NCBI GenBank assembly: GCA_023717525.1 | Contig: JAMQPK010000159.1 | Location: 19,284-83,283, forward strand | Direction: 5' to 3' | From: Vicinamibacterales bacterium | GTDB lineage: Bacteria > Acidobacteriota > Vicinamibacteria > Vicinamibacterales > JAMQPK01 | Length of the DNA: 64,000 nucleotides | Shown: positions 2,533 to 43,872 of the stretch, one piece after another | Layout of the letters: every line of letters begins with the position of its first letter | How positions within the stretch are numbered: the stretch's first letter is position 1 | Position numbers and translations under genes: made by a program | Notes under the pieces: model-generated | Databases searched by the model: none | What the model saw: the letters and a program-made list of their open reading frames with translations, nothing else | Told to the model about the DNA's origin: nothing

Positions 2533-3438
2533 TCATGTTTTTCCCGCGAGCAGCGTGTCTCGCCAGAGATTCGCGGAAGCGAAGACCTCTTCGATCGCTC
2601 TGCCGGTCTCGAGGTCCCTGCGGAGATCCGTCAGGACCGCGATGAGCGCGTCGAGCGACGCACCGACTTCGTCGGCGTTGGTGGCGCACACTTCCTTCCA
2701 GATGTCGGGTGGACTCGATGCCAGGCGGGTGGTGTCCTGCAGACCGCGCCCGCTGAGGCTCAGGCCGTCCCTGCCGGCTTCTCCGCCGACCACATGCATG
2801 AGCGCGCTGACGGTCAGTTGCGGAAGGTGGCTGATGAAGGCGAGGAGCTTGTCGTGCGCGGCTGGTGAGAGCGTCCTCGGGACCGCGCCCAGCCCGGCGG
2901 CAAACGACTCGAGTTTTTCCAACTCCTGCGCGTGCCGGTCGCTGGCCGGAGTGAACAGCCAGGGCCGGCCGGTAAACATGTCCGGACGCGCATGATCGAT
3001 GCCGCCTCGTGCTGCACCGCCGAGCGGGTGACCGCCGATGAACGTCAGCCGATCGGGAAGGGCCCGCGCGAGATCGACGATTGCCCGCTTGGTGCTTCCG
3101 GTGTCGGTGACAACGGCCCGGCCGATCACGTTGTCTGGCAAATCGCGGAGGACTTCGAGATTCTGTTGAATGGGCGCCGCGAGGATGACGAGGTCGGCCT
3201 CGGCCAGCACAATCGGATCGTCGGCCGCGACGTCGACGGCGTGCAGCACCATGGCCCGTTCGAGAACATCTTTTCGATCGACGCCGATCACGAGCCCAGA
3301 TGGCCAGATCTGGCGCGCGGCGATGGCAATCGATCCGCCGATCAGCCCGAGCCCGACGATTCCGACACGCTGGAAAATCGGCGGCTGCCCCTGCGCAGCG
3401 CCGGGCTGAAGCATCGGCAGTTGCTTCCCTTCCGACAT
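2533..3438 (-). CDS. tyrA: prephenate/arogenate dehydrogenase
   Basis: 301-aa ORF with an N-terminal Rossmann motif (GIVGLGLIGGS) and TyrA-like GGHPLGG and STK motifs. It lies in the aromatic operon. Confidence 0.85.
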   Translation of the reverse strand: MSEGKQLPMLQPGAAQGQPPIFQRVGIVGLGLIGGSIAIAARQIWPSGLVIGVDRKDVLERAMVLHAVDVAADDPIVLAEADLVILAAPIQQNLEVLRDLPDNVIGRAVVTDTGSTKRAIVDLARALPDRLTFIGGHPLGGAARGGIDHARPDMFTGRPWLFTPASDRHAQELEKLESFAAGLGAVPRTLSPAAHDKLLAFISHLPQLTVSALMHVVGGEAGRDGLSLSGRGLQDTTRLASSPPDIWKEVCATNADEVGASLDALIAVLTDLRRDLETGRAIEEVFASANLWRDTLLAGKT

Positions 3439-3442
3439 CCTC

Positions 3443-4489
3443 CTACCTTCCCCAGCCTCTCTTCACCACCGGCTCGACGCAAATGCTGCGCCCGATGGCC
3501 GGCGCGATGATGCGCAGTTCCGCCATCACGCGGTCGAACTGCGCCGGGAACATCGACTGCGCGCCGTCGCTGAGCGCCTTGTCCGGGTTGCAGTGCACTT
3601 CAACGATGATGCCGTCGGCACCCGCCGCGACCGACGCGCGCGCCATCGGTGCAACCTTGTCGCGCTTGCCTGTCGCATGGCTCGGGTCGGTGATGATGGG
3701 CAAGTGGCTCAGTTTCTTAATTACCGGGATCGCCGAAATGTCGAGGGTGTTCCGCGTGTAACTCTCGAACGTGCGGATGCCGCGCTCGCACAGAATGACA
3801 TCGGTGTTGCCGCCCGCGAGAATGTATTCCGCCGAGAGCAGCCACTCCTCGATTGTTGCGGCAATACCCCGCTTCAGGAGAACTGGTTTACGCGTGCGGC
3901 CGAGCTCGCGCAGCAGCGTGAAGTTCTGCATGTTGCGGGCACCGACCTGGTAGATGTCCGAGTAGCGCCCCACCAGATCGATCTGGCTGCTATCCATGAC
4001 TTCCGACACCAGCTTCATGTTCTGCTGGTCGGCCGCCTCGCGCAGCATCCGGAGCCCTTCCTCGCCGAGGCCCTGGAAGCTGTACGGCGAGCTGCGCGGT
4101 TTGAAGGCGCCGCCACGCAGGATCTTGGCGCCGGCCTTCTTGCAGGCCGCCGCTGTCGTAAAGACCTGCTCTTCGTTCTCTGCCGAGCACGGGCCGGCCA
4201 TCACGATGACTTCGTCGCCGCCGATGCGGACGTCATCGATCTGGATCACTGTGCCCTCGGGCTTGAACGTGCGGCTTGCGAGCTTGTAGGGCTCGGTGAT
4301 CCGGAGGACTTCGTGCACGCCGTCCATGACTTCGATGAGTGCTGCATCCACTTTGTGCGCTCCTACGACCCCAAGGACGGTGCGATTCACGCCCGTCGAG
4401 CGATGCACGTCCATGCCAGCCTCGACGAGGTTGGCAACCACCTTTTCGATCTGCGCTTCGGTCGCGCGCTCTTCCATGACCACTACCAT
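3443..4489 (-). CDS. aroF: 3-deoxy-7-phosphoheptulonate (DAHP) synthase, type I-beta, with N-terminal regulatory domain
   Basis: 348 aa with KPRSSPYSFQGLG and the KDO8P/DAHP-synthase I-beta core. A roughly 70-aa ferredoxin/ACT-like N-terminal extension is present. Confidence 0.9.
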   Translation of the reverse strand: MVVVMEERATEAQIEKVVANLVEAGMDVHRSTGVNRTVLGVVGAHKVDAALIEVMDGVHEVLRITEPYKLASRTFKPEGTVIQIDDVRIGGDEVIVMAGPCSAENEEQVFTTAAACKKAGAKILRGGAFKPRSSPYSFQGLGEEGLRMLREAADQQNMKLVSEVMDSSQIDLVGRYSDIYQVGARNMQNFTLLRELGRTRKPVLLKRGIAATIEEWLLSAEYILAGGNTDVILCERGIRTFESYTRNTLDISAIPVIKKLSHLPIITDPSHATGKRDKVAPMARASVAAGADGIIVEVHCNPDKALSDGAQSMFPAQFDRVMAELRIIAPAIGRSICVEPVVKRGWGR

Positions 4490-4491
4490 GA

Positions 4492-4809
4492 CTATCGTTC
4501 CTCCCCTTTGACGTCCACTGCACGCCCGTCCGATCCATGCGCCGTTGCGCGCTCGATGCGCCGCGCCTCGTCGATAATCCGCTCGAACACCCGCGCGATG
4601 GCGTCGCCGCCAAGCGGGCTTCCCATGTGTTTACCGTGAGACTGCACGTGGTGCAGTACCTGCGCCTCGCGGTCCGGCTGATACACCTCGAGGCCCAGGT
4701 CGTGTTTCAGCTTGCCGATCTCCAGCGCGCAGTGAGCGCGCTCGGTCAGCAGCTCCACCAACTTTTCATCCAGCTCGTCGATCCGGTTTCTCAGCTCGTC
4801 GATGGTCAT
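4492..4809 (-). CDS. chorismate mutase (AroQ class)
   Basis: 105 aa. The N-terminal IDELRNRIDELDEKLVELLTERAHCALEIGKLK is a typical AroQ helix. It overlaps trpA by 4 nt. Confidence 0.85.
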   Translation of the reverse strand: MTIDELRNRIDELDEKLVELLTERAHCALEIGKLKHDLGLEVYQPDREAQVLHHVQSHGKHMGSPLGGDAIARVFERIIDEARRIERATAHGSDGRAVDVKGEER

Positions 4810-5612
4810 GTCTGCGATGGCCGGCCGTTCTTCAGCCAGCGAACGTAGGATTCTACCCTCTCAACGAGATCGGGCGCTTTGCCGGCTTCAGCGATGACCC
4901 CCACGAGGCCGCTCCCCACCACTGCGGCGTCTGCCCACTGGCCAATCTGCCGCACGTGATCCGGGCTCGCAATGCCGAACCCCATGGCCAGCGGCATAGA
5001 GGTCGCCGCCCGGATTCGACGCGCGAGCGCCTCGGCACCATCGGCAACTTTGTCTCGCGTACCTGTGACGCCGAGCCGCGAGATCCCATACAAGAATCCG
5101 CTCCCGAGCAGCGCCGCCTGGCGGATTCTCGGCTCGGTCGTGGTCGGACTCAGCAGAAAGATCATGTCGATGTCGCGCGCCGCCAGCGAGTCGCGAACGG
5201 CCTGCGCTTCCTCAATGGGCAGATCGAGCACCAGCACGCCGTCCACGCCGGCTTGTCGCGCCCGATCGGCAAAGGCGTCGATCCCCATTCTCAGCACGGG
5301 ATTCGCGTAGGTGAACAGCACGATCGGCGCCTTGATCTCCGCACGGACCTGCGCGACCAGATCGAGCACGGCCGACGCGGTCGTACCGGCGGCCAACGCG
5401 CGTTCGGTGGCGCGCTGAATCACCGGTCCGTCGGCGAGGGGCTCGGAAAACGGAATGCCGACCTCGAGCACGTCGGCGCCGGCGCGATCGAGCGCGCGCA
5501 GGATATCGGCCGAGGACGAGAGATCGGGATCGCCTGCGGTCACGTACGTCACCAGGCCGGTCTGTCGATCGGCGCGCAATCGATCGAACGTTGCAGCGAT
5601 TCTACCCGCCAA
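4806..5612 (-). CDS. trpA: tryptophan synthase alpha chain
   Basis: YVTAGDP and GFGI motifs. The ORF extends to 5660, but the TTG at 5612 preceded by GAGGGG aligns best with canonical TrpA N-termini. The start is uncertain. Confidence 0.9.
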
Positions 5613-6837
5613 CGACGGACCCCTCTTCGTGTTCGAGATGCGCCGTGACGCTTTGTACATCTTTGTCGCCGCGTCCGGACAGATTCACCAGCACCTGCTT
5701 CCCTTCGCCAAGCTCCTGCGCCAGCGTGCACGCGTAGGCCACCGCATGAGACGACTCGAGTGCGGGGATGATGCCCTCGAGTCGCGCCAGCGCCTGAAAC
5801 GCCCCGAGCGCTTCGGCGTCGGCAATCCACGTGTATTCGGCGCGTCCGAGATCGCGTAACCACGCATGCTCTGGCCCCACCGCCGCGTAGTCGAGGCCGG
5901 CCGAAATCGAATGCGTCAGTTCGATGTTGCCATTCAGATCCTGAAGGACATACGTGCGCGTCCCCTGAAGGACGCCGGCCATCCCGGTGGCGAAGCGTGC
6001 CGCGTGCCGTCCGGCCGCGAGCGCTTCCCCGCCGGCTTCGACGCCCACCAGACGCACCGCCGCATCCGGAATGAACGCGTCAAAAATCCCGAGCGCGTTG
6101 CTGCCCCCGCCGACGCACGCGACAACCGCGTCCGGCAGCCCGCCGTTCATCGCCAACGCCTGTGCGCGCGCTTCCCGTCCAATGACGGCCTGGAATTCCC
6201 GGACCATCAGCGGATACGGATGCGGCCCGAGCACCGAGCCCAGCAGATAGTACGAGTCGGTGACGTTGGTCACCCAGTCGCGCATCGCCTCGTTGATGGC
6301 GTCCTTCAATGTGCGGCTGCCAGCATCGACGCGTCTGACGGTCGCGCCAAGCAACCGCATCCGGACGACGTTCAGCGCCTGGCGTTCCATGTCGTCGGCG
6401 CCCATATAGACGTGGCATTCGAGTCCCAGAAGGGCGCACACCGTCGCCGTGGCGACACCGTGCTGGCCGGCACCGGTCTCCGCAATGACCCGCGTCTTGC
6501 CCATCCGCTTGGCGAGCAGCGCCTGGCCGAGTGCGTTGTTGATCTTGTGGGCGCCCGTGTGCGCGAGGTCTTCCCGTTTCAGAAATATTCTCGCAGCCGG
6601 CTTAGGGAGCGAGGCGCGCAATCGCATGGCTTCATAGAGCGGCGTCGGCCTGCCCACGTACTCCGCGAGGAGCCTGTCGAGTTCCCGCAGAAACGCCGGC
6701 TCGCTCCGCGCTTCGTAGTACGCCCGCTGAAGCTCCTCGACCGGCGCCACCAGCGTCTCGGGAACAAACATCCCGCCGTATTCGCCGTAGTAGCCCCGCG
6801 CGTTCGGATCGCGGCGGCCAAATCGTGTGTCAGTCAT
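5602..6837 (-). CDS. trpB: tryptophan synthase beta chain
   Basis: 411 aa with the PLP-lysine region HTGAHKINN and GGGSNA. Confidence 0.95.
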
Positions 6838-7435
6838 TCAACGCCTCGAAGAAACGCCGTAGCCGGCTCGGATCTTTCACCCCGGGCGCCGCTTCGACGC
6901 CTGAGGACACATCCACACCGAACGGCTGAACCGTCTCCACTGCTCGAACGATGTTCTCCGGGGTTAGGCCACCCGAGAGAATGGTCTTCCGCACCGCCGC
7001 AATTTCCCGAGCTGCCTCCCAATTCACCGTCCTGCCGGTGCCCCCATAGCGAGATGGATCGTGCGCATCAAGCAGGATCAGCATTTCCGGGTCGAACCCG
7101 TCGAGGGCCACCGGCTCGCCATCCTGCAGCCCGACGGCCTTGATCACGGGACGATTCAAGAGACGGCAGTATTCCGCCGACTCGCCACCGTGAAGCTGCG
7201 CGACGTCGAGCCCGACCACGTCCATCGCGCGCGTGACCTCCTCCAGAGACTGATCCACAAACACCCCGACGTTCCTTACATGCCCGGCGTGACGCCTGGC
7301 AATTTCACGCGCCGTCGACTCACTGATTGCGCGAGGGCTCCCCTGCCAGAACACGAAACCAAGGGCATTGGCCCCGAGCTCGACGGCAAGATCGGCGTCC
7401 TCGAGCCGCGTGATGCCGCAGATCTTCACGAACAC
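6830..7435 (-). CDS. trpF: phosphoribosylanthranilate isomerase
   Basis: 201 aa with MFVKICGIT... and a TrpF-like barrel. It overlaps trpB and trpC. Confidence 0.9.
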
Positions 7436-8229
7436 AAGAGCTCCTTCAGCGCGGCTCCCGGATCACTGGCAGTCATGAACCGTTCCCCAACCAGAAACGC
7501 GTCGTAGCCCACACCACGCAGCCGGCGAAGATCGTCCGCGGTCCTAAGCCCGCTCTCGGCCACGGCAATGATCGCGTCAGGAATCTGCTCGGCAATCTCA
7601 CCGGAGACCCCAGGGTCGACTTGCAGGGTGCGCAGATTCCGGTTGTTCACGCCGACGATCGACGCACCGGCGTCAAGGGCGATCGGCAGTTCGGCCGGCT
7701 CGTGAACCTCGACAAGAACGCCCAGGCCGGCATCAACGGCGACGCGATGAAGATTCTTCAACCTTTCAGGCGTCAGGGCCGAAACGATCAGCAGCACAGC
7801 GTCCGCACCAGCCGCGCGCGCTTCAAGTATCTGATACGGATCGACGATGAAGTCCTTCCGCAGAACCGGAAGCGACGTCACCTTCCGGACCGCAGCCAGA
7901 TGTTCGAGGGAGCCGTCGAAGAAGGTCGGCTCCGTCAGCACCGAGATCGCCGCAGCTCCGGCCTCGTCGTAGCTTTTCGCAATCGCGGCAGCGTCGTAGT
8001 CCGCCCTCAGCACACCCCGCGAAGGCGAGCGGCGTTTGCACTCAGCAATCACATTGACCCGATTGCGGCGAACAAGAGTCTCCGCGAAGACATCTCGTCT
8101 TGGCTCGACTGCCGCCGCACGGCGATCCATTTCGCCCATCGGTATCTGCGATGAGCGCACCTCGACCATCCGGCGCGTGGCCGCCACAATCGTGGCGAGC
8201 AGATCAGGAGTGTGCGCCGGTGCCGTCAC
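7426..8229 (-). CDS. trpC: indole-3-glycerol phosphate synthase
   Basis: 267 aa with IAECKRRSPS, LRKDF and GVNNRNL motifs. Confidence 0.9.
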   Translation of the reverse strand: MTAPAHTPDLLATIVAATRRMVEVRSSQIPMGEMDRRAAAVEPRRDVFAETLVRRNRVNVIAECKRRSPSRGVLRADYDAAAIAKSYDEAGAAAISVLTEPTFFDGSLEHLAAVRKVTSLPVLRKDFIVDPYQILEARAAGADAVLLIVSALTPERLKNLHRVAVDAGLGVLVEVHEPAELPIALDAGASIVGVNNRNLRTLQVDPGVSGEIAEQIPDAIIAVAESGLRTADDLRRLRGVGYDAFLVGERFMTASDPGAALKELLCS

Positions 8230-9272
8230 GACGTCCTCTCCACGGTCGTCGACGGCCTCGACGCGGCCACCATGGCATTCAGCGTCGCGATGCCGGCACC
8301 CGAATCAATCGCCCGGGCAGCGCGTTGAATGCCTTCCTGTACCGACCCTGCCTTTCCGCCGATGAACAGTGAAGCGCCGGCATTCAGCAGCACCACATCG
8401 CGTCGCGGTCCTTTTTCGCCGCCGAGGATCTCTTGCACGATCGCTGCATTCATCGCTGCGTCGCCGCCATGCAGATCCTTCGACGCCGCCTTCGGCAGCC
8501 CGAAGTCTGATGGGTGTACGTAGAACGTCCTGACCGAGCCGTTGCGGCACTCCGAAACCTTGGTGTGGCCCGTCGTCGACAGCTCGTCGATGCCATCTGC
8601 CCCGTGCACGACCCAGGCACGCTCGGCGCCAAGAAGGAGCAGGGCTCGCGCGATCAGCTCGGTCAACTCTGAGTGCGGAACACCGACGAGCTGCGTCCTC
8701 GTGTTGGCAGGATTGGTCAGCGGCCCCAGCAGGTTGAACGCCGTCCGCACGCCCAGTTCCCGCCGCACCGGCGTCGCGTGTCTCATCGACGGATGAAACG
8801 TCGGAGCAAAGAAGAACGCGATGCCCACCGTTTCCAGTGACGCTTCCACAACCGCCGGTGTCGCGGCGATGTCGACGCCAAGCGCCTCGTACACGTCGGC
8901 GCTGCCGCACTTGCTCGACACCGATCGATTTCCGTGTTTCGCCACACGCAGGCCGGCTGCAGCGGCGACGAGCGCTGCCGCCGAGGAGATATTGAACGTG
9001 CCGGAACGGTCGCCTCCCGTGCCGCACGTATCGAACGCATCGTCGAATGTCTTCGTCAGCCTCACCGCATTCGCACGCATGGTTCTGGCGAGCCCGACGA
9101 TCTCCGCCGGGCGTTCGCCCTTCATCGTGAGGCCCATCAACAGCGACGCGATTTGCGCCGGTGTCGCTTCGCCGCTCATGATGGCCCCCATGGCCTCGGC
9201 TGATTCGTCCGTCGAGAGGTTCTCCCGCCGCATCAGCTTCTCCAGAAGGGCCGGAATACTCACCGTCGTCAT
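8226..9272 (-). CDS. trpD: anthranilate phosphoribosyltransferase
   Basis: 348 aa with DTCGTGGDRSGTFNIS and KHGNRS motifs. Confidence 0.95.
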   Translation of the reverse strand: MTTVSIPALLEKLMRRENLSTDESAEAMGAIMSGEATPAQIASLLMGLTMKGERPAEIVGLARTMRANAVRLTKTFDDAFDTCGTGGDRSGTFNISSAAALVAAAAGLRVAKHGNRSVSSKCGSADVYEALGVDIAATPAVVEASLETVGIAFFFAPTFHPSMRHATPVRRELGVRTAFNLLGPLTNPANTRTQLVGVPHSELTELIARALLLLGAERAWVVHGADGIDELSTTGHTKVSECRNGSVRTFYVHPSDFGLPKAASKDLHGGDAAMNAAIVQEILGGEKGPRRDVVLLNAGASLFIGGKAGSVQEGIQRAARAIDSGAGIATLNAMVAASRPSTTVERTS

Positions 9273-9847
9273 GACGGCGACCCCACTTTTAGAAAGTTAC
9301 GAAGCAGATGATGACCTTCGCGCGTCATGATGGATTCGGGATGAAACTGCACGCCGTGAATCGGAAACGTCCGATGACGCAGCGCCATGATGGTGCCGTC
9401 ATCCTCGGTCTGCGCCGAAATCTCCAGGTCGCCCGGCAGTCCTTCCCTCTGCACAACCAGGGAGTGATAGCGGGCCACCGTGAGCGGGCTCGCGATGCCG
9501 GCAAACACCCCCAGCCCGTCGTGCTTTATCGCCGACGTTTTACCGTGCATGGGCGCATTCGCACGAACAACCGCCCCGCCGAACGCCATACCGATCGCCT
9601 GATGACCGAGGCACACGCCGAGCAGCGGCACCGTGGGGCCGAATCGCCTGATGACATCGAGCGTTATGCCGGCCTGTTCGGGCCGGCCGGGTCCCGGCGA
9701 AATGACGATGCGTTCCGGCTTCAGCGCTCCGATCTCGTCGAGAGTGATCTCGTTGTTACGCCGCACGAATGGCTGCGTCCCGAGCTCGCCCAGGTACTGG
9801 ACCAGGTTGTAGGTGAAGGAATCGTAGTTGTCGATGACGAGAATCAC
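9269..9847 (-). CDS. trpG: anthranilate synthase component II (glutamine amidotransferase)
   Basis: The GTG at 9847 gives VILVIDNYDSFTYNL..GVCLGHQ..HPES. It overlaps the trpE stop as GTGA. The longer ORF N-terminus is an alternate frame of trpE. Confidence 0.9.
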   Translation of the reverse strand: MILVIDNYDSFTYNLVQYLGELGTQPFVRRNNEITLDEIGALKPERIVISPGPGRPEQAGITLDVIRRFGPTVPLLGVCLGHQAIGMAFGGAVVRANAPMHGKTSAIKHDGLGVFAGIASPLTVARYHSLVVQREGLPGDLEISAQTEDDGTIMALRHRTFPIHGVQFHPESIMTREGHHLLRNFLKVGSPS

Positions 9848-11325
9848 AGGCCCTCCTGCGCCAGTTCGAGCGCACGGACGAGCGCCTTGGCTTTGTCCTG
9901 CGTTTCCTGAAATTCGGCAGACGGATTGGAATCCGCGACGATGCCGGCGCCGGCCTGTACCATGGCACGCTGCCCGGCAATCACCAGGGTTCGAATCGTG
10001 ATACAGAAGTCGAGATTGCCCGCAAAATCGAGATAGCCGACCGCGCCCGCGTAGATACCTCGTCGATCGGGCTCGAGCTCGGCAATGATTTCCATTGCGC
10101 GGACCTTCGGGGCGCCGGAGACCGTTCCGGCCGGAAAACACGCGACGAGCGCATCGAGACGGTCGCTGTCGTCGGCCAGCTTTCCTTCGACGATCGACAC
10201 CAGATGCATGACGTGCGAGTACTTCTCGAGTCCCATGAATTGCGGGACGCGCACCGATCCGAACTGTGAAACACGGCCCAGATCGTTGCGCCCCAGATCG
10301 ACGAGCATGACGTGCTCCGACCGTTCCTTCTCGTTACGCTTCAGCTCCTCAGCAAGACGAGTGTCTTCCTCTTCGCTCTTCCCACGGGGACGCGTGCCCG
10401 CAATCGGATGCGTCTGCGCCATGCCGCCCTCGACGCGCACGAGCATTTCCGGGGACGACCCGACAATGGAGACCTTGCCCATGCGCAAGAAATACATGTA
10501 CGGCGATGGATTCACGTGCCGCAAGGCCCGGTAGACCGTGAAGGGGTCAGCCGTGATCTCTGCTTCGAAGCGCTGCGAGAGCACCACTTGATAGATGTCA
10601 CCGGCCGCGATGTACTCCTTCGCCGTCTTCACCATCTCGAGGAAGCGCTCGCGGGGCATGTTCGACGTCACCGCAACAGCCTTTCCGGGCTTGGGCCGCG
10701 GATGGGAGAAGTCGCGGCGGAGCTCGCGTTCGAGAAACTCGATCTTCGTGCACGCGAACTGATACAGCGCCTCGAGATCGTCATCCGGCGTAATGCGCGC
10801 GTTCGCAATAATCAGAATCCGATGCTGCACGTGATCGAATGCCAGCACGGTGTCGAAGACCATGAATCCCGCTTCGTCCTTTAAGGCATCCTCGGCCGGC
10901 TGGCCGTCGGTCTGCAGCGTGACCGGCTCGAACCACGCGGCGGTGTCATACCCAAGGTACCCAACGGCCCCGCCAGTGAAGCGCGGCAGCTCCGGCACAA
11001 ACGGCGAGCGAAAGTCGGCCATCATCCTTCGAAGGACTTCGATGAACGGCTCTCCGCTTTCACTCGCGGTACCCGCACGTTCGACGATCGTCCTCCCGTC
11101 GCGGGATCGCAGGGTCACGAACGGATCTTTTCCGAGGAACGAATACCGGCCGACGTGCTCGCCCCCTTCGACGCTCTCCAACAAGAATGCGTAGTCGGAG
11201 TTTTCCGCGATTCTGAGAAACGCCGAGACCGGCGTCAGCAGATCGGCGACCATTTCCTTCACCACCGGCACGAATGTGCTGCGCTGCGCCAGTTCCGTGA
11301 ACGTTTCAAATGATGTCAGTCTCAT
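9844..11325 (-). CDS. trpE: anthranilate synthase component I
   Basis: The chorismate-binding core contains GAVGY and the GxGIVxDS-type motif GAGIVADS. Start MRLTSFE at 11325 overlaps the upstream stop as ATGA. Confidence 0.95.
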   Translation of the reverse strand: MRLTSFETFTELAQRSTFVPVVKEMVADLLTPVSAFLRIAENSDYAFLLESVEGGEHVGRYSFLGKDPFVTLRSRDGRTIVERAGTASESGEPFIEVLRRMMADFRSPFVPELPRFTGGAVGYLGYDTAAWFEPVTLQTDGQPAEDALKDEAGFMVFDTVLAFDHVQHRILIIANARITPDDDLEALYQFACTKIEFLERELRRDFSHPRPKPGKAVAVTSNMPRERFLEMVKTAKEYIAAGDIYQVVLSQRFEAEITADPFTVYRALRHVNPSPYMYFLRMGKVSIVGSSPEMLVRVEGGMAQTHPIAGTRPRGKSEEEDTRLAEELKRNEKERSEHVMLVDLGRNDLGRVSQFGSVRVPQFMGLEKYSHVMHLVSIVEGKLADDSDRLDALVACFPAGTVSGAPKVRAMEIIAELEPDRRGIYAGAVGYLDFAGNLDFCITIRTLVIAGQRAMVQAGAGIVADSNPSAEFQETQDKAKALVRALELAQEGL

Positions 11326-12752
11326 AAGCTTGCCTGTGCCGCTTGCCGCATCAAATCCACGGGTGGCCGGCGTCCAATCCACCAGTCTGATTGCTCGACC
11401 GCCTGCGCCACGAGCATGTCGAGACCGCCGATCGTGTCGCACCCTGCGGCTTCGGCCTCGACAAGGAGGCGCGTCCGCTGAGGGTTGTAGATCAAGTCGT
11501 AGACCACACGCCCGTCGAACTCTCCGTCGAATGGCGTTTCGTCCACGTGTGGGACCATGCCGACGGGAGTTGCGTTCACCAGAAGATCCCAGCTCTTCGG
11601 AGGCACCGGATACGAGGCGCCGCGTCCATGCCCAAGGCGCGCGACTTCCTCTGCCTTCGAGCGGTCTCTTCCGTAAACAGTCACGACGCTGCCGTGCGAA
11701 CCCAGCGCCACGGCGACGCCACGGGCCGCTCCGCCGCTGCCGAGGATCGCCACACGAGCGCCCTGCAACGGCAACCGGCCGGCAATCGGCGCCAGAAACC
11801 CCGCCACGTCAGTGTTCCGCCCGTGCCACTGGCCCCCGTCGTGTCGGAGAGTATTGATTGCGCCAACGGCTCGACTCAGATCGTCTGTCGTGTCCGCTTT
11901 GCCGAACAGATCGACCTTGTAAGGGATGGTCACACTCGCACCCTTGACGCCGAGAGCGTTGGCGAAGGTGATGAAGTCCTCGGCGCTCGCCGCAGGCATC
12001 GGCATGTACACGGCGTCGACACCGGCCGCGCGAAATGCCGCGTTGTGCATGGCTGGAGAAACAGAATGCGCCAGGGGTGCACCAGTAATGCCGTAAATGC
12101 CGGTACGCGACGTCACCTCGCGAAAACGGAACTCGCCGAGCATGCGTGAGGCGCCAATCTGTCCGGGCGCATGGCCATCGCCTGCATACGACCAGCACGA
12201 TCCGAAATGCGCCGCGAGCACGCGTGTCGCGAGACCTGCTGGTCCCATTCCAATAAGCACGGTCTTGCGGCTCGGATCGCCCAGACTCAATAACCGCAAG
12301 TTGTCGGAGAGCGCCCGCGGGTATACGGCCACCTTCACGATCTCGGCCCCCGTTGCGCGCATCGCGCGCACGCGTTCGCTGAGATCCGATGGCACGTCAT
12401 CAAAATGGTGTGACGACACCACGATGCCCTTCCCGCCGGTGGAGCGAATCAGATCAAGAGCGAAGTCTGCACTGAACTCGACATCGACATAGTCGGCGCC
12501 CTGAGCGACCGCCGCCTGCAGGATCTTCAACCGTTCGCTCTCCGAGCCGCGAAAGCCGCCGCCTTCGAACGCTGCACGGCATGTGACCACGACTGGCGTG
12601 CGGCGGCCGGACAAAGCCGCGGAAACATCCGGATCGGCCGCCTGGTCGATGCGCAGTTCGATGAGATCGGCGCCGACTACGGCGTCGCGACGCAGGCGCA
12701 GCTCCGCCATCGTGGGCGCGGCGACCGTGACGACGAGCAGTGGTGCTGACAT
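11322..12752 (-). CDS. aroDE: bifunctional type I 3-dehydroquinate dehydratase / shikimate dehydrogenase
   Basis: The N-terminal half has type I DHQase motifs (SSHHF, IVKVA). The C-terminal half has AroE motifs (SVSPAMHNAAF, VTIPYK, NTD, GSGGAARG). The start at 12752 is preceded by GAGG-N8. Confidence 0.85.
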   Translation of the reverse strand: MSAPLLVVTVAAPTMAELRLRRDAVVGADLIELRIDQAADPDVSAALSGRRTPVVVTCRAAFEGGGFRGSESERLKILQAAVAQGADYVDVEFSADFALDLIRSTGGKGIVVSSHHFDDVPSDLSERVRAMRATGAEIVKVAVYPRALSDNLRLLSLGDPSRKTVLIGMGPAGLATRVLAAHFGSCWSYAGDGHAPGQIGASRMLGEFRFREVTSRTGIYGITGAPLAHSVSPAMHNAAFRAAGVDAVYMPMPAASAEDFITFANALGVKGASVTIPYKVDLFGKADTTDDLSRAVGAINTLRHDGGQWHGRNTDVAGFLAPIAGRLPLQGARVAILGSGGAARGVAVALGSHGSVVTVYGRDRSKAEEVARLGHGRGASYPVPPKSWDLLVNATPVGMVPHVDETPFDGEFDGRVVYDLIYNPQRTRLLVEAEAAGCDTIGGLDMLVAQAVEQSDWWIGRRPPVDLMRQAAQASL

Positions 12753-12790
12753 AAAAAAAGCCTCTTCAACTGGTAGGCTGAAGAGGCTTT
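12753..12790 (-). terminator. intrinsic terminator/attenuator hairpin abutting the aroDE start codon
   Basis: On the minus strand, aaagcctcttca (12790-12779) pairs with tgaagaggcttt (12768-12757) around a 10-nt loop. A run of 7 U ends directly at ATG 12752. Confidence 0.65.
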
Positions 12791-12813
12791 GTTGGCTCCC
12801 GAATGTGTCGGTT

Positions 12814-12876
12814 TCAGGCCAAGGCAGGCGCCCCTTCAGTGTGGGCGTAATCCCACCATCCAAAACCAAACGACAC
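12814..12876 (-). CDS. candidate aromatic-rich leader peptide (V/M)SFGFGWWDYAHTEGAPALA
   Basis: A short ORF lies between a sigma70-like promoter and the terminator. Tandem TGG TGG codons are at 12858-12853. The GTG at 12876 is preceded by GGGGA. An alternative in-frame ATG at 12924 has no SD. Confidence 0.45.
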   Translation of the reverse strand: MSFGFGWWDYAHTEGAPALA

Positions 12877-12941
12877 ATATCCCCTGCTGGCGGCGGGGGC
12901 GGCGTTGTGGAGGACGGCCTGCATGGCGTTCAAGATGTCGG

Positions 12942-12971
12942 ACGATAGCAGGAACCCTTTGAAATTGTCAA
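12942..12971 (-). promoter_or_regulatory. sigma70-like promoter for the leader/aromatic operon
   Basis: On the minus strand, TTGACA (12971-12966) is followed by an 18-nt spacer and TATCGT (12947-12942). Confidence 0.4.
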
Positions 12972-13018
12972 GGATTGTGCGAGTATTGACGGAAGGATTT
13001 CCCAATAGATTCAACAAC

Positions 13019-14854
13019 ATGAAGAGACTTCTTTTCGCCCTCGCCGCGAGCCTGGCGCTGCTGGTTGTGTCGCTGCCAGCGGCTCCTCCGTACTACCCAA
13101 TCGATCAGGTGAAGCCAGGGATGGTGGCCACGGGGTATACGGTCTGGGAGGGGACAAAGGTTGAGACCTTCAAGGCCAATATCCTCGGCGTCCTTCGAAA
13201 CGTGATCGGACCAAAGCGCGATCTCATTCTCGCGCGGCTCGAAGGTGGACCGCTTGCGCAAACCGGCGTCATCGCCGGCATGAGCGGCAGCCCTGTCTAT
13301 ATCGACGGTCAGCTCGTCGGAGCGGTCTCTTATTCGCTCGGCGCTTTTTCGAAGGAACCGATCGCAGGTATTACACCGATCGCCGAAATGATTGACGCGG
13401 CCACCCTCGAGTCCCCGAGGGCGCCTGTGCAGCGAGCGAGGCTGGAGACTCCGGTTACGCGCGAAAGCCTGTCGGCGGCGATGAGCGCGTCGCTGTCGTG
13501 GATGCGCCCATTCGCTGATCGCCCTGGCGACGTACAAGTGCTTGGCAGCGGCGTCAGCGGCCAGGTTGCCACAATGCTCCGGCCGATTGCAACGCCGCTG
13601 AGCCTCGGCGGCTTCGATCCTCAAGTTGCAGATCTTCTCAGCTCCGCCTTCCGCGACTACGGGTTCTCACCGGTTGCAGGCGCGGGGGCCGGCGCGGCCG
13701 ATGTTCCCGGCGATACTGGCTCGTCGGCGCTGAAGCCCGGCGAAGCGGTCGGCGTGAACATCGTCGGCGGCGACTTCAGCATGGCCGCGACCGGAACAGT
13801 GACGGAAGTCGTCGGCAATCGGGTGTATGCGTTCGGCCATCCCTTTTTCAATCTTGGGCCCGTCCAATTCCCGATGTCGAAGGCGTACGTGCATACGCTG
13901 CTTCCGAGCCTGACGTCTTCGATGAAGATTGCGACGACCGGCGACGTTGTCGGCACCGTGCAGCAGGATCGTGCAACGACTATCGCAGGGCTGCTCGGAG
14001 CAGGTCCGGCGACTATTCCTGTAAAGATTGCGCTCGAATCGGAACGCGGCTTCAAGCAGTCGTTCCAGTTTCAAGTTGTCAGCGATCAACTCTTCACACC
14101 ATTGTTCACGTATGCCTCCATCCTGAGCACGTTGACGTCGTACGAGCGCGAGACCGGCGCGGCAACGTTCAATGTCAAGGGCACGATGAACGTGAAGTCG
14201 CACGGCCAGGTCGCCATCGAGGACTTGTTCTCCGGCGACCGCGCGTCGATGAGCACGGCGGCGTCGGTGATGGCGCCATTGACGTTCCTGTTGGGCAACG
14301 ATTTCGAACCTATTGAGATCCAGGCGGTCGATCTCACGATTCAGTCGACCGAGCAGCCCCGCACCGCGACGATCGAGCGTGTCTGGCTCGACGGCGCCCG
14401 TGCGCGGGCGGGCAGGACCGTTCCGCTGAAGGTGCTCATGCGCACCTATCGCGGTGAAGAGGTCGTTCGCAACGTGCCGTTGGACATTCCGGCAAACGCC
14501 ACCGGGTCGCTTTCGGTCATGGTCTCCGACGGCTCGCGCCTGGCACAGTGGGAGCGGCGAGAGGTGCGGCAGCCGTCCGAACCACGCAGCGTGCCCCAGT
14601 TGATGCGTACCCTGAACACTCTGAGAAAAAACAACCGCCTGTATGTGCGCCTGCTCGCAAGCGACGCCGGCGCCGTTATCGGCGGTGAGCCGCTGTCGTC
14701 GCTGCCTCCTTCCGTATTGGGCGTGCTCGAAGCCGATCGCAGCACCGGGGATTTCGTTCCGCTTCGGAGCGCGACCCTGGGCGAATGGAACCTGCCGACA
14801 GAATTTGTCGTGGTGGGCTCGCGCATGCTGACGATTAACCTGGACGCCAACTAG
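13019..14854 (+). CDS. SpoIVB-type (S55) serine peptidase domain protein, secreted
   Basis: The start at 13019 gives the signal peptide MKRLLFALAASLALLVVSL. GMSGSPVY and AFGHPF motifs resemble the S55 catalytic Ser and His regions. Confidence 0.75.
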   Translation: MKRLLFALAASLALLVVSLPAAPPYYPIDQVKPGMVATGYTVWEGTKVETFKANILGVLRNVIGPKRDLILARLEGGPLAQTGVIAGMSGSPVYIDGQLVGAVSYSLGAFSKEPIAGITPIAEMIDAATLESPRAPVQRARLETPVTRESLSAAMSASLSWMRPFADRPGDVQVLGSGVSGQVATMLRPIATPLSLGGFDPQVADLLSSAFRDYGFSPVAGAGAGAADVPGDTGSSALKPGEAVGVNIVGGDFSMAATGTVTEVVGNRVYAFGHPFFNLGPVQFPMSKAYVHTLLPSLTSSMKIATTGDVVGTVQQDRATTIAGLLGAGPATIPVKIALESERGFKQSFQFQVVSDQLFTPLFTYASILSTLTSYERETGAATFNVKGTMNVKSHGQVAIEDLFSGDRASMSTAASVMAPLTFLLGNDFEPIEIQAVDLTIQSTEQPRTATIERVWLDGARARAGRTVPLKVLMRTYRGEEVVRNVPLDIPANATGSLSVMVSDGSRLAQWERREVRQPSEPRSVPQLMRTLNTLRKNNRLYVRLLASDAGAVIGGEPLSSLPPSVLGVLEADRSTGDFVPLRSATLGEWNLPTEFVVVGSRMLTINLDAN

Positions 14855-37075: not shown

Positions 37076-37149
37076 GCGGGGTTAGCATAGTGGTAATGTT
37101 CTGGCTTCCCAAGCCAGCTAGGCGGGTTCGATTCCCGTACCCCGCTCCA
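37076..37149 (+). tRNA. tRNA-Gly (anticodon CCC)
   Basis: Manual cloverleaf: acceptor gcggggt/accccgc, anticodon stem ctggc/gccag with loop ttCCCaa, T-loop ttcgatt, encoded CCA. A TATAAT box lies at 37057-37062. Confidence 0.9.
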
Positions 37150-43797: not shown

Positions 43798-43872
43798 GGG
43801 CGCTTGGCTCAGCGGTAGAGCATCGCCTTCACACGGCGGGGGTCAGTGGTTCGAATCCACTAGCGCCCACCA
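43798..43872 (+). tRNA. tRNA-Val (anticodon CAC)
   Basis: Manual cloverleaf: acceptor gggcgct/agcgccc, D arm gctc-agcggta-gagc, anticodon loop ttCACac, T arm agtgg-ttcgaat-ccact, encoded CCA. Confidence 0.9.

Follow-up and report, generated by a model that had tools for sequence, protein, structure and literature searches.

A candidate ribosome-mediated Trp/Tyr leader-peptide attenuator upstream of the aromatic amino acid operon in Vicinamibacteria

Attenuators can respond to more than one amino acid. In E. coli, the thr attenuator responds to Thr and Ile; those of ilvGMEDA and ilvBN respond to Ile, Leu and Val. The aromatic supraoperon of Bacillus subtilis, aroFBH-trpEDCFBA-hisC-tyrA-aroE, is TRAP-controlled; a TRAP site consists of 9-11 GAG/UAG triplets which are 2-3 nt apart and overlap the antiterminator. 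Acidobacteriota rank among the most abundant bacteria of soils; to our knowledge, almost nothing is known about gene regulation in this phylum.

Leader peptides with Trp codons are found in high-G+C Gram-positives, at Streptomyces venezuelae trpE and Corynebacterium glutamicum trpL (cited in PMC4833913); as far as that citation reaches, the mechanism thus exists outside the Proteobacteria. In Deinococcus deserti, transcription of a putative trpEGD leader peptide starts 1 nt upstream of the start codon (PMC4007540). The polycysteine short ORFs of mycobacteria are leaderless leader-peptide attenuators with mapped transcription starts (bioRxiv 10.1101/834739).

The sequence analysed here, referred to as the window, is a 64,000-nt stretch of a contig from a member of the Vicinamibacterales (Acidobacteriota). 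It contains a putative attenuator, with all elements on the minus strand, just upstream of an aromatic amino acid operon (Table 1). The attenuator is very probably of the ribosome-mediated leader-peptide type and would couple the operon to charged tRNA-Trp, probably also to charged tRNA-Tyr.

Layout of the locus

The operon has eleven genes, as proposed in the initial annotation; all eleven are confirmed by Pfam. The genes abut or overlap, and one related locus (L081) has an identical gene order. Synteny of aroDE and trpE is found in 79 of 80 related loci, and trpG is next wherever the fetched DNA reaches far enough. The Tyr branch is represented by chorismate mutase and prephenate dehydrogenase; for the Phe branch, the operon has no prephenate dehydratase.

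Table 1. Elements of the candidate attenuator and the operon downstream (window coordinates)
Feature	Position	Strand	Details
Promoter (consensus scan)	12942..12971	-	-35 TTGACA 12971-12966; 18-nt spacer; extended -10 TGcTATCGT 12950-12942
Leader ORF	12814..12924	-	36 codons + TGA, MQAVLHNAAPAASRGYVSFGFGWWDYAHTEGAPALA; ATG 12924, TGA 12816-12814
Regulatory codons	12847..12858	-	TGG TGG 12858-12853, GAT, TAC 12849-12847
Segment 2, antiterminator 5' arm	12830..12839	-	CTGAAGGGGC; inside leader ORF (codons T-E-G-A); pairs with 12787-12778
Segment 3, terminator 5' arm	12777..12790	-	AAAGCCTCTTCAGC; core 12787-12778 common to terminator and antiterminator
Segment 4, terminator 3' arm	12757..12770	-	GTTGAAGAGGCTTT; contains GAGG 12764-12761
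T7 tract of predicted intrinsic terminator	12753..12759	-	abuts aroDE ATG at 12752
Operon (Pfam)	2533..12752	-	aroDE, trpE, trpG, trpD, trpC, trpF, trpB, trpA, CM_2, DAHP synthase, prephenate dehydrogenase

The TTGACA-18 nt-TATCGT promoter identified earlier is present at 12971-12942 and conserved in relatives. Its -10 hexamer lies at 12947-12942, preceded by TG at 12950-12949, and 10 of 12 consensus positions are matched; a consensus scan finds no other promoter-like site of this quality within 11000-14500. Most related loci have TTGAC[ACG]-17/18-(TGn)TAnnnT ahead of the leader ORF, with the end of the -10 usually 9-13 nt away from the leader start codon. No Shine-Dalgarno sequence precedes the ORF in the window or in related loci; consequently, the leader ORF looks nearly leaderless, with the transcript 5' end predicted from the promoter. 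In the window, 17 nt separate the end of the -10 from the ATG, which is longer than in most relatives; together with the missing Shine-Dalgarno sequence, this makes initiation efficiency at the window ORF uncertain. An alternative in-frame TTG start is located at 12933-12931, 8 nt after the -10.

The short ORF ending at TGA 12816-12814, with tandem TGG codons at 12858-12853, was correctly described in the initial annotation. Two features were overlooked there: the length of the leader ORF, which is about 30-45 codons (26-46 across relatives), and a start that lies very close to the predicted 5' end of the transcript and has no Shine-Dalgarno sequence. In 70 loci, the equivalent ORF starts 10-35 codons before the Trp run (median ~23), with an ATG in 51 of them. 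A homologous 44-aa leader ORF is annotated as a gene in L081; an exact-sequence look-up returned no record for the window leader peptide.

Two mutually exclusive helices follow. The terminator hairpin was first described as 12 bp (12790-12779 with 12768-12757); the hairpin is real but its stem is 14 bp (12790-12777 with 12770-12757), with a 6-nt loop and a dG of -20.8 kcal/mol in isolation. The U7 tract runs into the aroDE ATG as claimed. The alternative 10-bp pairing, CTGAAGGGGC (12839-12830) with GCCTCTTCAG (12787-12778), also exists with its single G-U pair and has a duplex energy of -18.3 kcal/mol.

The comparison of conformer energies suggested in the initial annotation distinguishes two states. 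RNA 12842-12771 stands for the transcript as it is before synthesis of the 3' terminator arm; it adopts the antiterminator helix (-26.2 kcal/mol). Once segment 4 exists, the terminator wins (-34.5 kcal/mol); it also wins when the RNA upstream of 12803 is masked, mimicking a ribosome positioned on the stop codon. When the RNA stretching from segment 2 as far as the terminator loop is folded, the 2:3 helix forms in 60 of 62 loci; this test is partly circular since segment 2 is defined by its complementarity to segment 3. The 196-nt leader has a folding z of -3.26 relative to shuffles, and the 64-kb window holds a single occurrence of the combined arm pattern, versus 0 in 100 shuffles.

Conservation and covariation

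A covariance model, R1, was built from 70 relatives. It gives one full-length match in the window and one copy in 79 of the 80 related loci which have upstream DNA; ten matched loci are outside the seed. The matches are plus-strand and full-length, score 44.6-102 bits and always lie just upstream of aroDE; matches on the minus strand reflect the palindromic hairpin. Pattern and model scans find no second copy in the window or elsewhere in the related loci. The related organisms are nearly all uncultured MAGs, and their aroDE proteins are 45-69% identical. Conservation of the mini-ORF, the aromatic codons and the hairpins in relatives was the proposed check, and it does not refute the attenuator: a Trp-rich ORF, the antiterminator arm, the terminator and the T-run are present ahead of aroDE in 79 of 80. 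Judged from these sequence comparisons, the candidate attenuator is conserved across the whole class Vicinamibacteria (soil Acidobacteria).

A pattern scan of metagenomes is loose: of the 80 matches listed, 60 lack the third arm and are due to chance, and only the 20 complete elements were used. Of the matches listed in which a T-run accompanies all three arms, 17 have aroDE as the next gene and one has trpE.

Covariation, the second check proposed, is found in both helices. In the terminator helix, 97.7% of cells are paired and 16 are changed on both sides (slid controls 37-60%). RNAalifold independently predicts the terminator, with variable outer pairs (AU 34, CG 21, GC 5). In the antiterminator, 93.4% of cells in the 70-sequence alignment are paired and 17 are changed on both sides (slid controls 41-58%). 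All three arms change together to CTGGAGAGGC / GCCTCTCCAG / TTGGAGAGGC in L014, L021 and L054; a further three-way change, GCCGAGGGGGCG / CGCCCCTTCGGC, is found in L077-L080, of which L077, L079 and L080 are Luteitalea-type. The number of compensatory changes, counted over sequences related by descent, is modest because the arms are very conserved.

Proposed mechanism and alternatives

In the proposed mechanism, the transcription start, ORF translation, stalling, termination and amino-acid response are all predicted from sequence. Transcription would start a few nt upstream of the ~36-codon leader ORF, which would be translated without a Shine-Dalgarno sequence. The ribosome would meet 2-4 Trp codons with adjacent Tyr codons and then, ~12-16 nt further on and still inside the ORF, segment 2 (CUGAAGGGGC). 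Segment 2 is complementary to segment 3 (GCCUCUUCAG), the putative 5' arm of the intrinsic terminator (segments 3:4 plus U7). If the ribosome stalls at the Trp/Tyr codons, segment 2 would remain outside it and pair with segment 3 once this is transcribed; pairing would block the terminator, and RNA polymerase would read into aroDE. When charged tRNA-Trp and tRNA-Tyr are plentiful, the ribosome would cross segment 2 to the stop codon. There it would occlude or melt segment 2; segments 3 and 4 could then pair, and transcription would end at the U tract. The interpretation as a ribosome-mediated attenuator, already made in the initial annotation, is supported by conservation, covariation, frame-keeping spacing and the conserved promoter.

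Spacing fits classical attenuation, in which a stall leaves segment 2 free and a ribosome at the stop codon would block it; ribosome footprint sizes are taken here from general knowledge. The median distance to the arm is 16 nt from the last Trp codon (IQR 12-23) and 12 nt from the last aromatic codon. Between the arm end and the stop codon, the median distance is 9 nt, with a range of -10 to 14; segment 3 follows the stop codon at a median of 31 nt. In the window, the stop codon lies 13 nt beyond segment 2, so that a ribosome positioned there would cover only the 3' few nt of segment 2 and termination would be a matter of kinetics.

No conserved 1:2 anti-antiterminator or pause hairpin is found when segment 2 is compared with the 100 nt upstream using RNAduplex. 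The best 1:2 duplex averages -13.1 kcal/mol versus -13.0 kcal/mol in coding-sequence controls (p = 0.61). This apparently leaves a three-segment design with the ribosome as sole anti-antiterminator. A few clades have a good 1:2 candidate, such as ACCTCTTCA in L005, L012 and L013. There is no conserved pause or 1:2 hairpin to keep the ribosome and RNA polymerase in step.

An 8-bp helix enclosing the leader was also described initially. This helix (ATGTGTCG, 12878-12871, with CGACACAT, 12810-12803) is present and perfect in the window, but its register is not kept in the closest relatives, with 3-7 bp in shifting registers in L001, L002, L003, L026, L028 and L064. It is clade-specific and rejected as a part of the attenuator.

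Codon composition bears on which amino acids are sensed. Of 70 loci, 61 have 2-4 Trp codons in the core of the leader, and 59 have one or more Tyr codons there. Across 62 loci, Trp makes up 26.8% of core codons and Tyr 15.0%, versus 1.6% each in aroDE; this corresponds to a 17-fold enrichment for Trp and a 9-fold enrichment for Tyr. Phe is not enriched in the core (4.9%) relative to the N-terminal region of the leader (5.5%) and is rejected as a regulatory codon; of the 'Phe/Trp/Tyr' leader described initially, Trp and Tyr stand while Phe does not, and the description should read 'Trp/Tyr'. This matches the operon, which contains the Tyr branch without the Phe branch.

The same attenuator might sense Trp only, with the neighbouring Tyr codons incidental to TGGTAT duplication, to a role as spacers or to an RNA-level constraint. 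The Trp signal is stronger and more nearly universal, and Tyr is missing from the 10 codons ahead of the arm in 11 of 70 leaders. WYWYW variants (L062, L065, L076) resemble an expanded TGGTAT repeat. With the last aromatic codon so close to the arm, a stalled ribosome may also clip the first bases of the arm. These points are set against the Tyr frequency in the N-terminal part of the leader peptides, which is 1.6% and equal to that in aroDE, and against the position of Tyr, which adjoins Trp in 56 of 62 loci. In addition, the rarer codon TAT is over-used (TAT:TAC 59:44 in the leader versus 143:377 in aroDE); this bias may be partly compositional, as GC3 is 0.70 in the whole leader versus 0.81 in aroDE. 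Since the operon content also matches joint enrichment of Trp and Tyr, sensing of Trp only is rather unlikely, while still to be taken seriously.

Control could instead be mainly translational, with the 3:4 hairpin sequestering the aroDE Shine-Dalgarno sequence and leader translation governing initiation or re-initiation. The only Shine-Dalgarno-like sequence for aroDE, the GAGG 8 nt from the ATG, does lie inside the 3' terminator arm as first described. Such gating requires an aroDE start within ~10 nt of the stem; this is the case in the window and about a third of loci, where the start is 4-10 nt downstream of the stem. In most loci, 15-135 nt separate the hairpin from the aroDE start and the ribosome-binding site of aroDE cannot be in the arm, so gating is clade-specific and not a general mechanism. 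All loci scored have a U-rich stretch behind the stem, with at least five U in 9 nt in 62 of 62; the terminator search required this same threshold, so the count is not independent evidence. Control that is mainly translational is improbable. Several aroDE proteins in the databases seem over-extended at the N-terminus, across the attenuator.

It is more doubtful still that antitermination is independent of the ribosome, with a TRAP-like protein or a T-box-like uncharged tRNA binding the UGG stretch or segment 2 and the ORF irrelevant. The missing Shine-Dalgarno sequence ahead of the leader ORF would agree with this, and arm conservation is unusual for a plain terminator, as a protein-binding site might show; however, the arms are under a three-way constraint and one is also coding, which explains their conservation. 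In 65 of 70 loci, the arm core lies a multiple of 3 nt away from the Trp run, and the reading frame is kept across seven length classes (12, 18, 21, 24, 27, 30 and 36 nt). In L036 and L059, which are exceptions to this rule, the stop codon is the TGA inside cTGAag. The start codon is conserved at a fixed distance from the promoter, and the stop codon lies just after the arm or within it. These features argue against a ribosome-independent mechanism; the kept frame and the start position also lend indirect support to translation of the ORF.

Known ribosome-independent elements do not match either. At gathering score, Rfam finds no cis-regulatory family in the window, only tRNA genes at 37076 and 43798, and no family in 20 related loci. 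The T-box riboswitch (RF00230) gives no match even at E <= 10 in 12600-13100. A TRAP-type leader is also rejected: 12936-12790 holds one GAG and no TAG, and the sole repeated triplet is UGG, two in tandem. Related leaders have only 2-4 contiguous UGG triplets, not the 9-11 spaced triplets of TRAP sites.

A locus without a regulatory role, in which a chance ORF precedes a constitutively leaky terminator or an insulator that separates divergent genes, is extremely improbable: ORFs of 30-40 codons often arise by chance in such G+C-rich DNA, but the Trp/Tyr codons, competing helix and spacing are conserved class-wide, and a chance ORF would not retain 27% Trp codons at one place in 79 loci.

Ribosome-mediated attenuation is thus the preferred reading. 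A fuller version of it is more tentative, with somewhat less than an even chance of being correct: a class-wide, bivalent Trp and Tyr attenuator over common-pathway, Trp-branch and Tyr-branch genes, with a long, nearly leaderless ORF, no 1:2 helix and read-through by default when the leader is not translated. If so, read-through would become constitutive when leader translation is lost, the reverse of what happens in the E. coli trp archetype.

Comparison with described systems

The attenuator is apparently uncatalogued so far. Trp_leader (RF00513) does not match it. At E <= 10 in 12600-13100, the only Rfam match is Phe_leader, at 20.5 bits (gathering 55) and aligning the terminator alone; six leader peptides from these loci give no match in Pfam or NCBIfam in the same E-value range. 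A full-text literature search found no published description of this attenuator (Merino, Jensen and Yanofsky 2008 and Lopatovskaya et al. 2010 are outside its scope) and none of a Trp and Tyr leader. These results agree with the initial annotation, in which the arrangement was not recognised as described.

With its well-defined anatomy, the R1 covariance model and 79 related loci beside the window copy, this candidate would extend leader-peptide attenuation to another phylum. It may also provide two variations: joint Trp/Tyr sensing which fits the operon content, and a leaderless three-segment design whose untranslated default is predicted to be ON. The R1 model could be offered to Rfam; given a genetic system, the attenuator is a possible Trp/Tyr-responsive part.

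The D. deserti leader (PMC4007540) and the mycobacterial short ORFs (bioRxiv 10.1101/834739) share with the Vicinamibacteria leader a start at or near the transcript 5' end and the lack of a Shine-Dalgarno sequence. They belong to other phyla and are unrelated in sequence; their transcription starts were mapped, while those in Vicinamibacteria are predicted from the promoter. The actinobacterial trp attenuators, as far as they are covered by the citation in PMC4833913, have shorter leaders, are located before trpE and show no homology to the Vicinamibacteria attenuator, judged from the lack of Rfam, Pfam and NCBIfam matches.

In the multivalent attenuators of E. coli, mixed codons mirror an operon serving several pathways. 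The Vicinamibacteria leader is similar in this respect, with Trp and Tyr codons ahead of trp, chorismate mutase and tyrA genes. The amino acid pair is different, and the role of Tyr is suggested by codon enrichment only.

The B. subtilis supraoperon resembles the operon described here in that trp genes are placed among common-pathway and Tyr-branch genes in one attenuator-regulated unit; gene content and order differ. In B. subtilis, an RNA-binding protein is the sensor and the attenuator is internal, before trpE. In Vicinamibacteria, the proposed sensor is the translating ribosome and the attenuator precedes the first gene.

The design also resembles enterobacterial trpL (RF00513), typified by E. 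coli. Both have a leader ORF with tandem Trp codons ahead of trp genes, and in both an antiterminator (2:3) and a terminator (3:4) with a U tract are mutually exclusive. Stalling of the ribosome on the Trp codons promotes read-through in E. coli, and the same is predicted for Vicinamibacteria. The sequences are unrelated. The E. coli leader has 14 codons versus ~36 in the window, and segment 2 follows the stop codon in E. coli while it is inside the ORF, upstream of the stop, in Vicinamibacteria. Unlike E. coli trpL, the Vicinamibacteria leader has a nearly leaderless start without a Shine-Dalgarno sequence, and its Trp codons are accompanied by Tyr codons. In Vicinamibacteria, aroDE comes first, and the operon adds chorismate mutase, DAHP synthase and tyrA to the trp genes. 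Finally, there is no conserved 1:2 helix in Vicinamibacteria; consequently, the predicted default of an untranslated leader is read-through rather than super-attenuation as in E. coli.

Organisation of the element and its operon

The element proposed in the initial annotation is real, and its reading as an attenuator is supported with corrections. The promoter, leader ORF, tandem Trp codons and 10-bp alternative pairing are all present as listed; the hairpin, T7 tract and aroDE start codon were likewise confirmed, but the stem is 14 bp rather than 12 bp. An 8-bp helix thought to enclose the leader does not keep its register in the closest relatives. Below, segment 2 is the antiterminator 5' arm, and segments 3 and 4 are the terminator 5' and 3' arms. 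The promoter (TTGACA-18-TATCGT) is the sole match of its kind within 11000-14500.

Features of the attenuator region and neighbouring genes in the window
Feature	Position	Strand	Basis
Sigma-70-like promoter: TTGACA, 18 nt, TATCGT; TG one base 5' of -10	12971-12942	minus	consensus scan
Leader ORF, peptide MQAVLHNAAPAASRGYVSFGFGWWDYAHTEGAPALA	ATG 12924 to TGA 12814	minus	translation
Tandem Trp codons TGG TGG in leader ORF	12858-12853	minus	sequence reading
Antiterminator, 10 bp: CTGAAGGGGC with GCCTCTTCAG	12839-12830 with 12787-12778	minus	alternative pairing
Terminator-like hairpin: stem 14 bp, loop 6 nt	12790-12777 with 12770-12757	minus	hairpin scan
T7 tract directly 3' of terminator stem, adjoining aroDE ATG 12752		minus	sequence reading
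11-gene operon	12752-2533	minus	Pfam
518-aa ORF from ATG 12878	12878-11322	minus	
Prok-JAB domain gene	2016-2519	minus	
M17 leucyl aminopeptidase gene	54-1565	minus	
Divergent gene	13018-14854	plus	
Two tRNA genes	37076-37146, 43798-43869	plus	Rfam

Folding bears out the two proposed conformers. The 196-nt leader RNA is more stable than its shuffles (z = -3.26). In isolation the terminator hairpin has -20.8 kcal/mol and the duplex of segments 2 and 3 has -18.3. RNA 12842-12771, the stretch beyond a Trp-stalled ribosome made before the terminator 3' arm, adopts the antiterminator fold (-26.2 kcal/mol); with segment 4 added, it is the terminator fold that prevails.

Each gene of the aromatic operon announced behind the leader is backed by Pfam: DHquinase_I plus shikimate dehydrogenase (aroDE), trpE, trpG, trpD, trpC, trpF, trpB, trpA, CM_2, DAHP synthase and prephenate dehydrogenase. 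The genes are closely packed. The Prok-JAB gene lies 14 nt 3' of tyrA, and is also found behind tyrA in L081, a relative retrieved with 10 kb of flank; the M17 gene follows about 450 nt further on. The divergent gene begins 265 nt ahead of aroDE, and the intergenic region carries the promoters of both. Its L081 counterpart is a Peptidase_S55 (SpoIVB-like) gene, with a homologue upstream in 14 of 80 related loci. At gathering score, Rfam matches nothing in the window besides the two tRNA genes.

ATG 12878 shares the aroDE reading frame, and no stop codon intervenes. Database aroDE homologues including P0002, P0013, P0020 and P0059 have 513-528 aa against about 477; the longer N-termini probably result from gene calls drawn too far upstream, across the attenuator.

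Conservation among relatives

The window's aroDE protein matches a Vicinamibacterales MAG protein (Acidobacteriota) at 100% identity. A scan of one genome per species gave 80 loci with aroDE 45-69% identical, labelled almost all as Vicinamibacterales, Vicinamibacteria or Acidobacteriota. The aroDE-trpE synteny is kept in 79 of them, with trpG next wherever the fetched DNA was long enough; L081 has all 11 genes in the same order. The upstream layout is nearly everywhere TGGTGG(TGG) plus TAT or TAC, a CTGAAGGGGC-like segment, a stop codon, GCCTCTTCAGCC, a loop, GGTTGAAGAGGC and a T-run. In the comparison with relatives that the annotation itself had called for, conservation of the ORF, the Trp codons and both helices, with covariation, supports the original interpretation.

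Seventy loci passed a strict script, which required a hairpin of 9 bp or more followed by a T-run and, 20-45 nt ahead of the hairpin, the end of a W-rich ORF. Their alignment served to build a covariance model, which matched once at full length (44.6-102 bits) in the window and in each of the loci that have upstream DNA, L069 excepted; ten of the matched loci lay outside the seed. Pattern and covariance-model searches found no second copy in the 64-kb window. L069 keeps the aroDE-trpE synteny and has a divergent S55-like gene close by.

In the metagenome sample, the gene following complete elements (three arms and T-run) with room downstream is aroDE in 17 cases and trpE in one; the one exception is a doubtful match with a weak T-run. 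The element is thus a dedicated operon attenuator and not a dispersed repeat. In the trpE case (L121, Ga0316628_100362047), a WWW-Y leader, three arms and T-run stand directly 5' of trpE with no aroDE between, which indicates that the attenuator accompanies the trp genes also in operons that do not begin with aroDE.

The attenuator-aroDE spacer varies. In L023 (element at 2152-2500) some 215 nt separate the element from aroDE; this DNA has GATCTCCCTGTGATT-like inverted repeats and may be a small insertion. Short tandem repeats occupy the spacer in L080 (about five copies of GTAAGCC/GTAAGTC), L022 (GCTGAAA/GCTGAGA) and L017 (GATTTGG-like). Vicinamibacteria-type operons with the attenuator also occur in MAGs labelled Bifidobacterium breve, Acidimicrobiia, Solibacteraceae and Bifidobacteriaceae (L005, L039, L067, L074, L076); the bin taxonomy is probably wrong.

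Both helices are strongly supported by the alignment. In the terminator (columns 145-154 with 164-173), 97.7% of cells are paired and 16 are changed on both sides, against 37-60% paired in slid controls; for the antiterminator (columns 74-83 with 145-154) the values are 93.4%, 17 and 41-58%. No column shuffle (0/500) matched the observed pairing or covariation score of either helix, counts which are not probabilities since the aligned sequences share descent. RNAalifold alone recovers the terminator, whose two outer pairs vary freely (e.g. AU 34, CG 21, GC 5). Three-way changes occur in L014, L021 and L054 (CTGGAGAGGC / GCCTCTCCAG / TTGGAGAGGC) and in Luteitalea-type loci (GCCGAGGGGGCG / CGCCCCTTCGGC / GCCGAAGGGGCG). 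The arms are conserved to an unusual degree, which in our view reflects the need for a single sequence to pair with two partners, of which one is also coding. No conserved 1:2 helix is supported: segment 2 pairs with the upstream 100 nt no better than with coding controls.

The predicted leader peptide

Between the last TGGTGG and the segment 2 core, the spacing is divisible by three in 65 of 70 loci. Seven lengths occur (12, 18, 21, 24, 27, 30 and 36 nt), which points to repeated in-frame insertions and deletions. In two exceptions (L036, L059) the ORF is shifted and the TGA within cTGAag is the stop codon. All 70 loci have an in-frame start codon 10-35 codons 5' of the first Trp codon (ATG in 51; median about 23 codons). 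In L081 the source's gene caller picked up the homologous 44-aa ORF (9804-9938) as a gene; it has no Pfam match.

On the 3' side of the A-site codon, a bacterial ribosome covers about 12 nt. Segment 2 begins a median of 16 nt after the last Trp codon (IQR 12-23) and precedes the stop codon by a median of 9 nt (range -10 to 14). It should therefore be free when a ribosome stalls at Trp, and covered in part or whole by a ribosome at the stop codon.

Most loci have a TTGAC[ACG]-17/18-TAnnnT promoter, usually with TGn before the -10, which most often ends 9-13 nt 5' of the leader start codon; no Shine-Dalgarno-like sequence precedes that codon. Transcription usually starts 6-8 nt after the -10. 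On this assumption the 5' end is predicted 0-6 nt before the ORF, which would make the ORF fully or almost leaderless. The window has 17 nt between the end of its -10 and ATG 12924, though an in-frame TTG (12933) is found 8 nt past the -10. Leaderless leader peptides have precedents in Deinococcus deserti (14 putative cases, one for trpEGD; PMC4007540) and mycobacteria (polycysteine short ORFs; bioRxiv 10.1101/834739).

The leader had been described as rich in Phe, Trp and Tyr; the enrichment holds for Trp and Tyr only. Trp makes up 26.8% of the core (from two codons ahead of the first Trp as far as segment 2), against 0.1% of the N-terminal part of the same peptides and 1.6% of aroDE; for Tyr the values are 15.0%, 1.6% and 1.6%, and for Phe 4.9%, 5.5% and 2.9%. 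The Phe codons of the window leader (SFGFGWW) are confined to its own clade. A less likely rival explanation is that the attenuator senses Trp only; against it, Tyr adjoins Trp in 56 of 62 loci. The rarer TAT is favoured in the leader (59 TAT to 44 TAC; 143 to 377 in aroDE), a preference which its lower overall GC3 (0.70 vs 0.81 in aroDE) may partly explain. The operon encodes the Trp branch, the Tyr branch (chorismate mutase, prephenate dehydrogenase) and two common-pathway steps, with no prephenate dehydratase among its 11 genes; Trp and Tyr codons without Phe would thus mirror its content.

Proposed mechanism and known systems

The data are best read as ribosome-mediated attenuation of the classical kind, with three RNA segments. 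When Trp or Tyr is scarce, the ribosome would stall at their codons and segments 2 and 3 would pair as segment 3 emerges, letting RNA polymerase pass the U tract into the operon. When both are plentiful, an unhindered ribosome would cross segment 2 and reach the stop codon close behind it; segments 3 and 4 would then pair and transcription would end.

A protein- or tRNA-mediated switch is disfavoured by the frame conservation and the lack of T-box- or TRAP-type features. A mainly translational effect could draw on the proposed aroDE Shine-Dalgarno sequence in segment 4, which is possible where aroDE starts no further than about 10 nt from the stem, as in around one third of loci, but not in the others, which have aroDE 15-135 nt downstream; against it stands the U tract present in all loci scored, a T-run being a criterion of the locus script. 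The absence of any regulation is at odds with the conserved frame from the Trp run to segment 2.

The element is outside every catalogued family. Rfam at gathering score gave no cis-regulatory family in the window or 20 related loci; the sole weak match in the leader region was Phe_leader (20.5 bits against a gathering score of 55), with only the terminator aligned. No Pfam or NCBIfam model matched six leader peptides (E <= 10), and full-text literature searches brought up no account of an acidobacterial trp or aromatic attenuator.

As read from its sequence, the Vicinamibacteria element would work like the enterobacterial, rhizobial and actinobacterial trp attenuators. Possible variant features are bivalent Trp/Tyr sensing, a near-leaderless long leader and the use of three segments. 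In the absence of a 1:2 helix, the three-segment model predicts read-through by default when the leader is untranslated. This is the opposite of E. coli trp, and provides a sharp test of the model.
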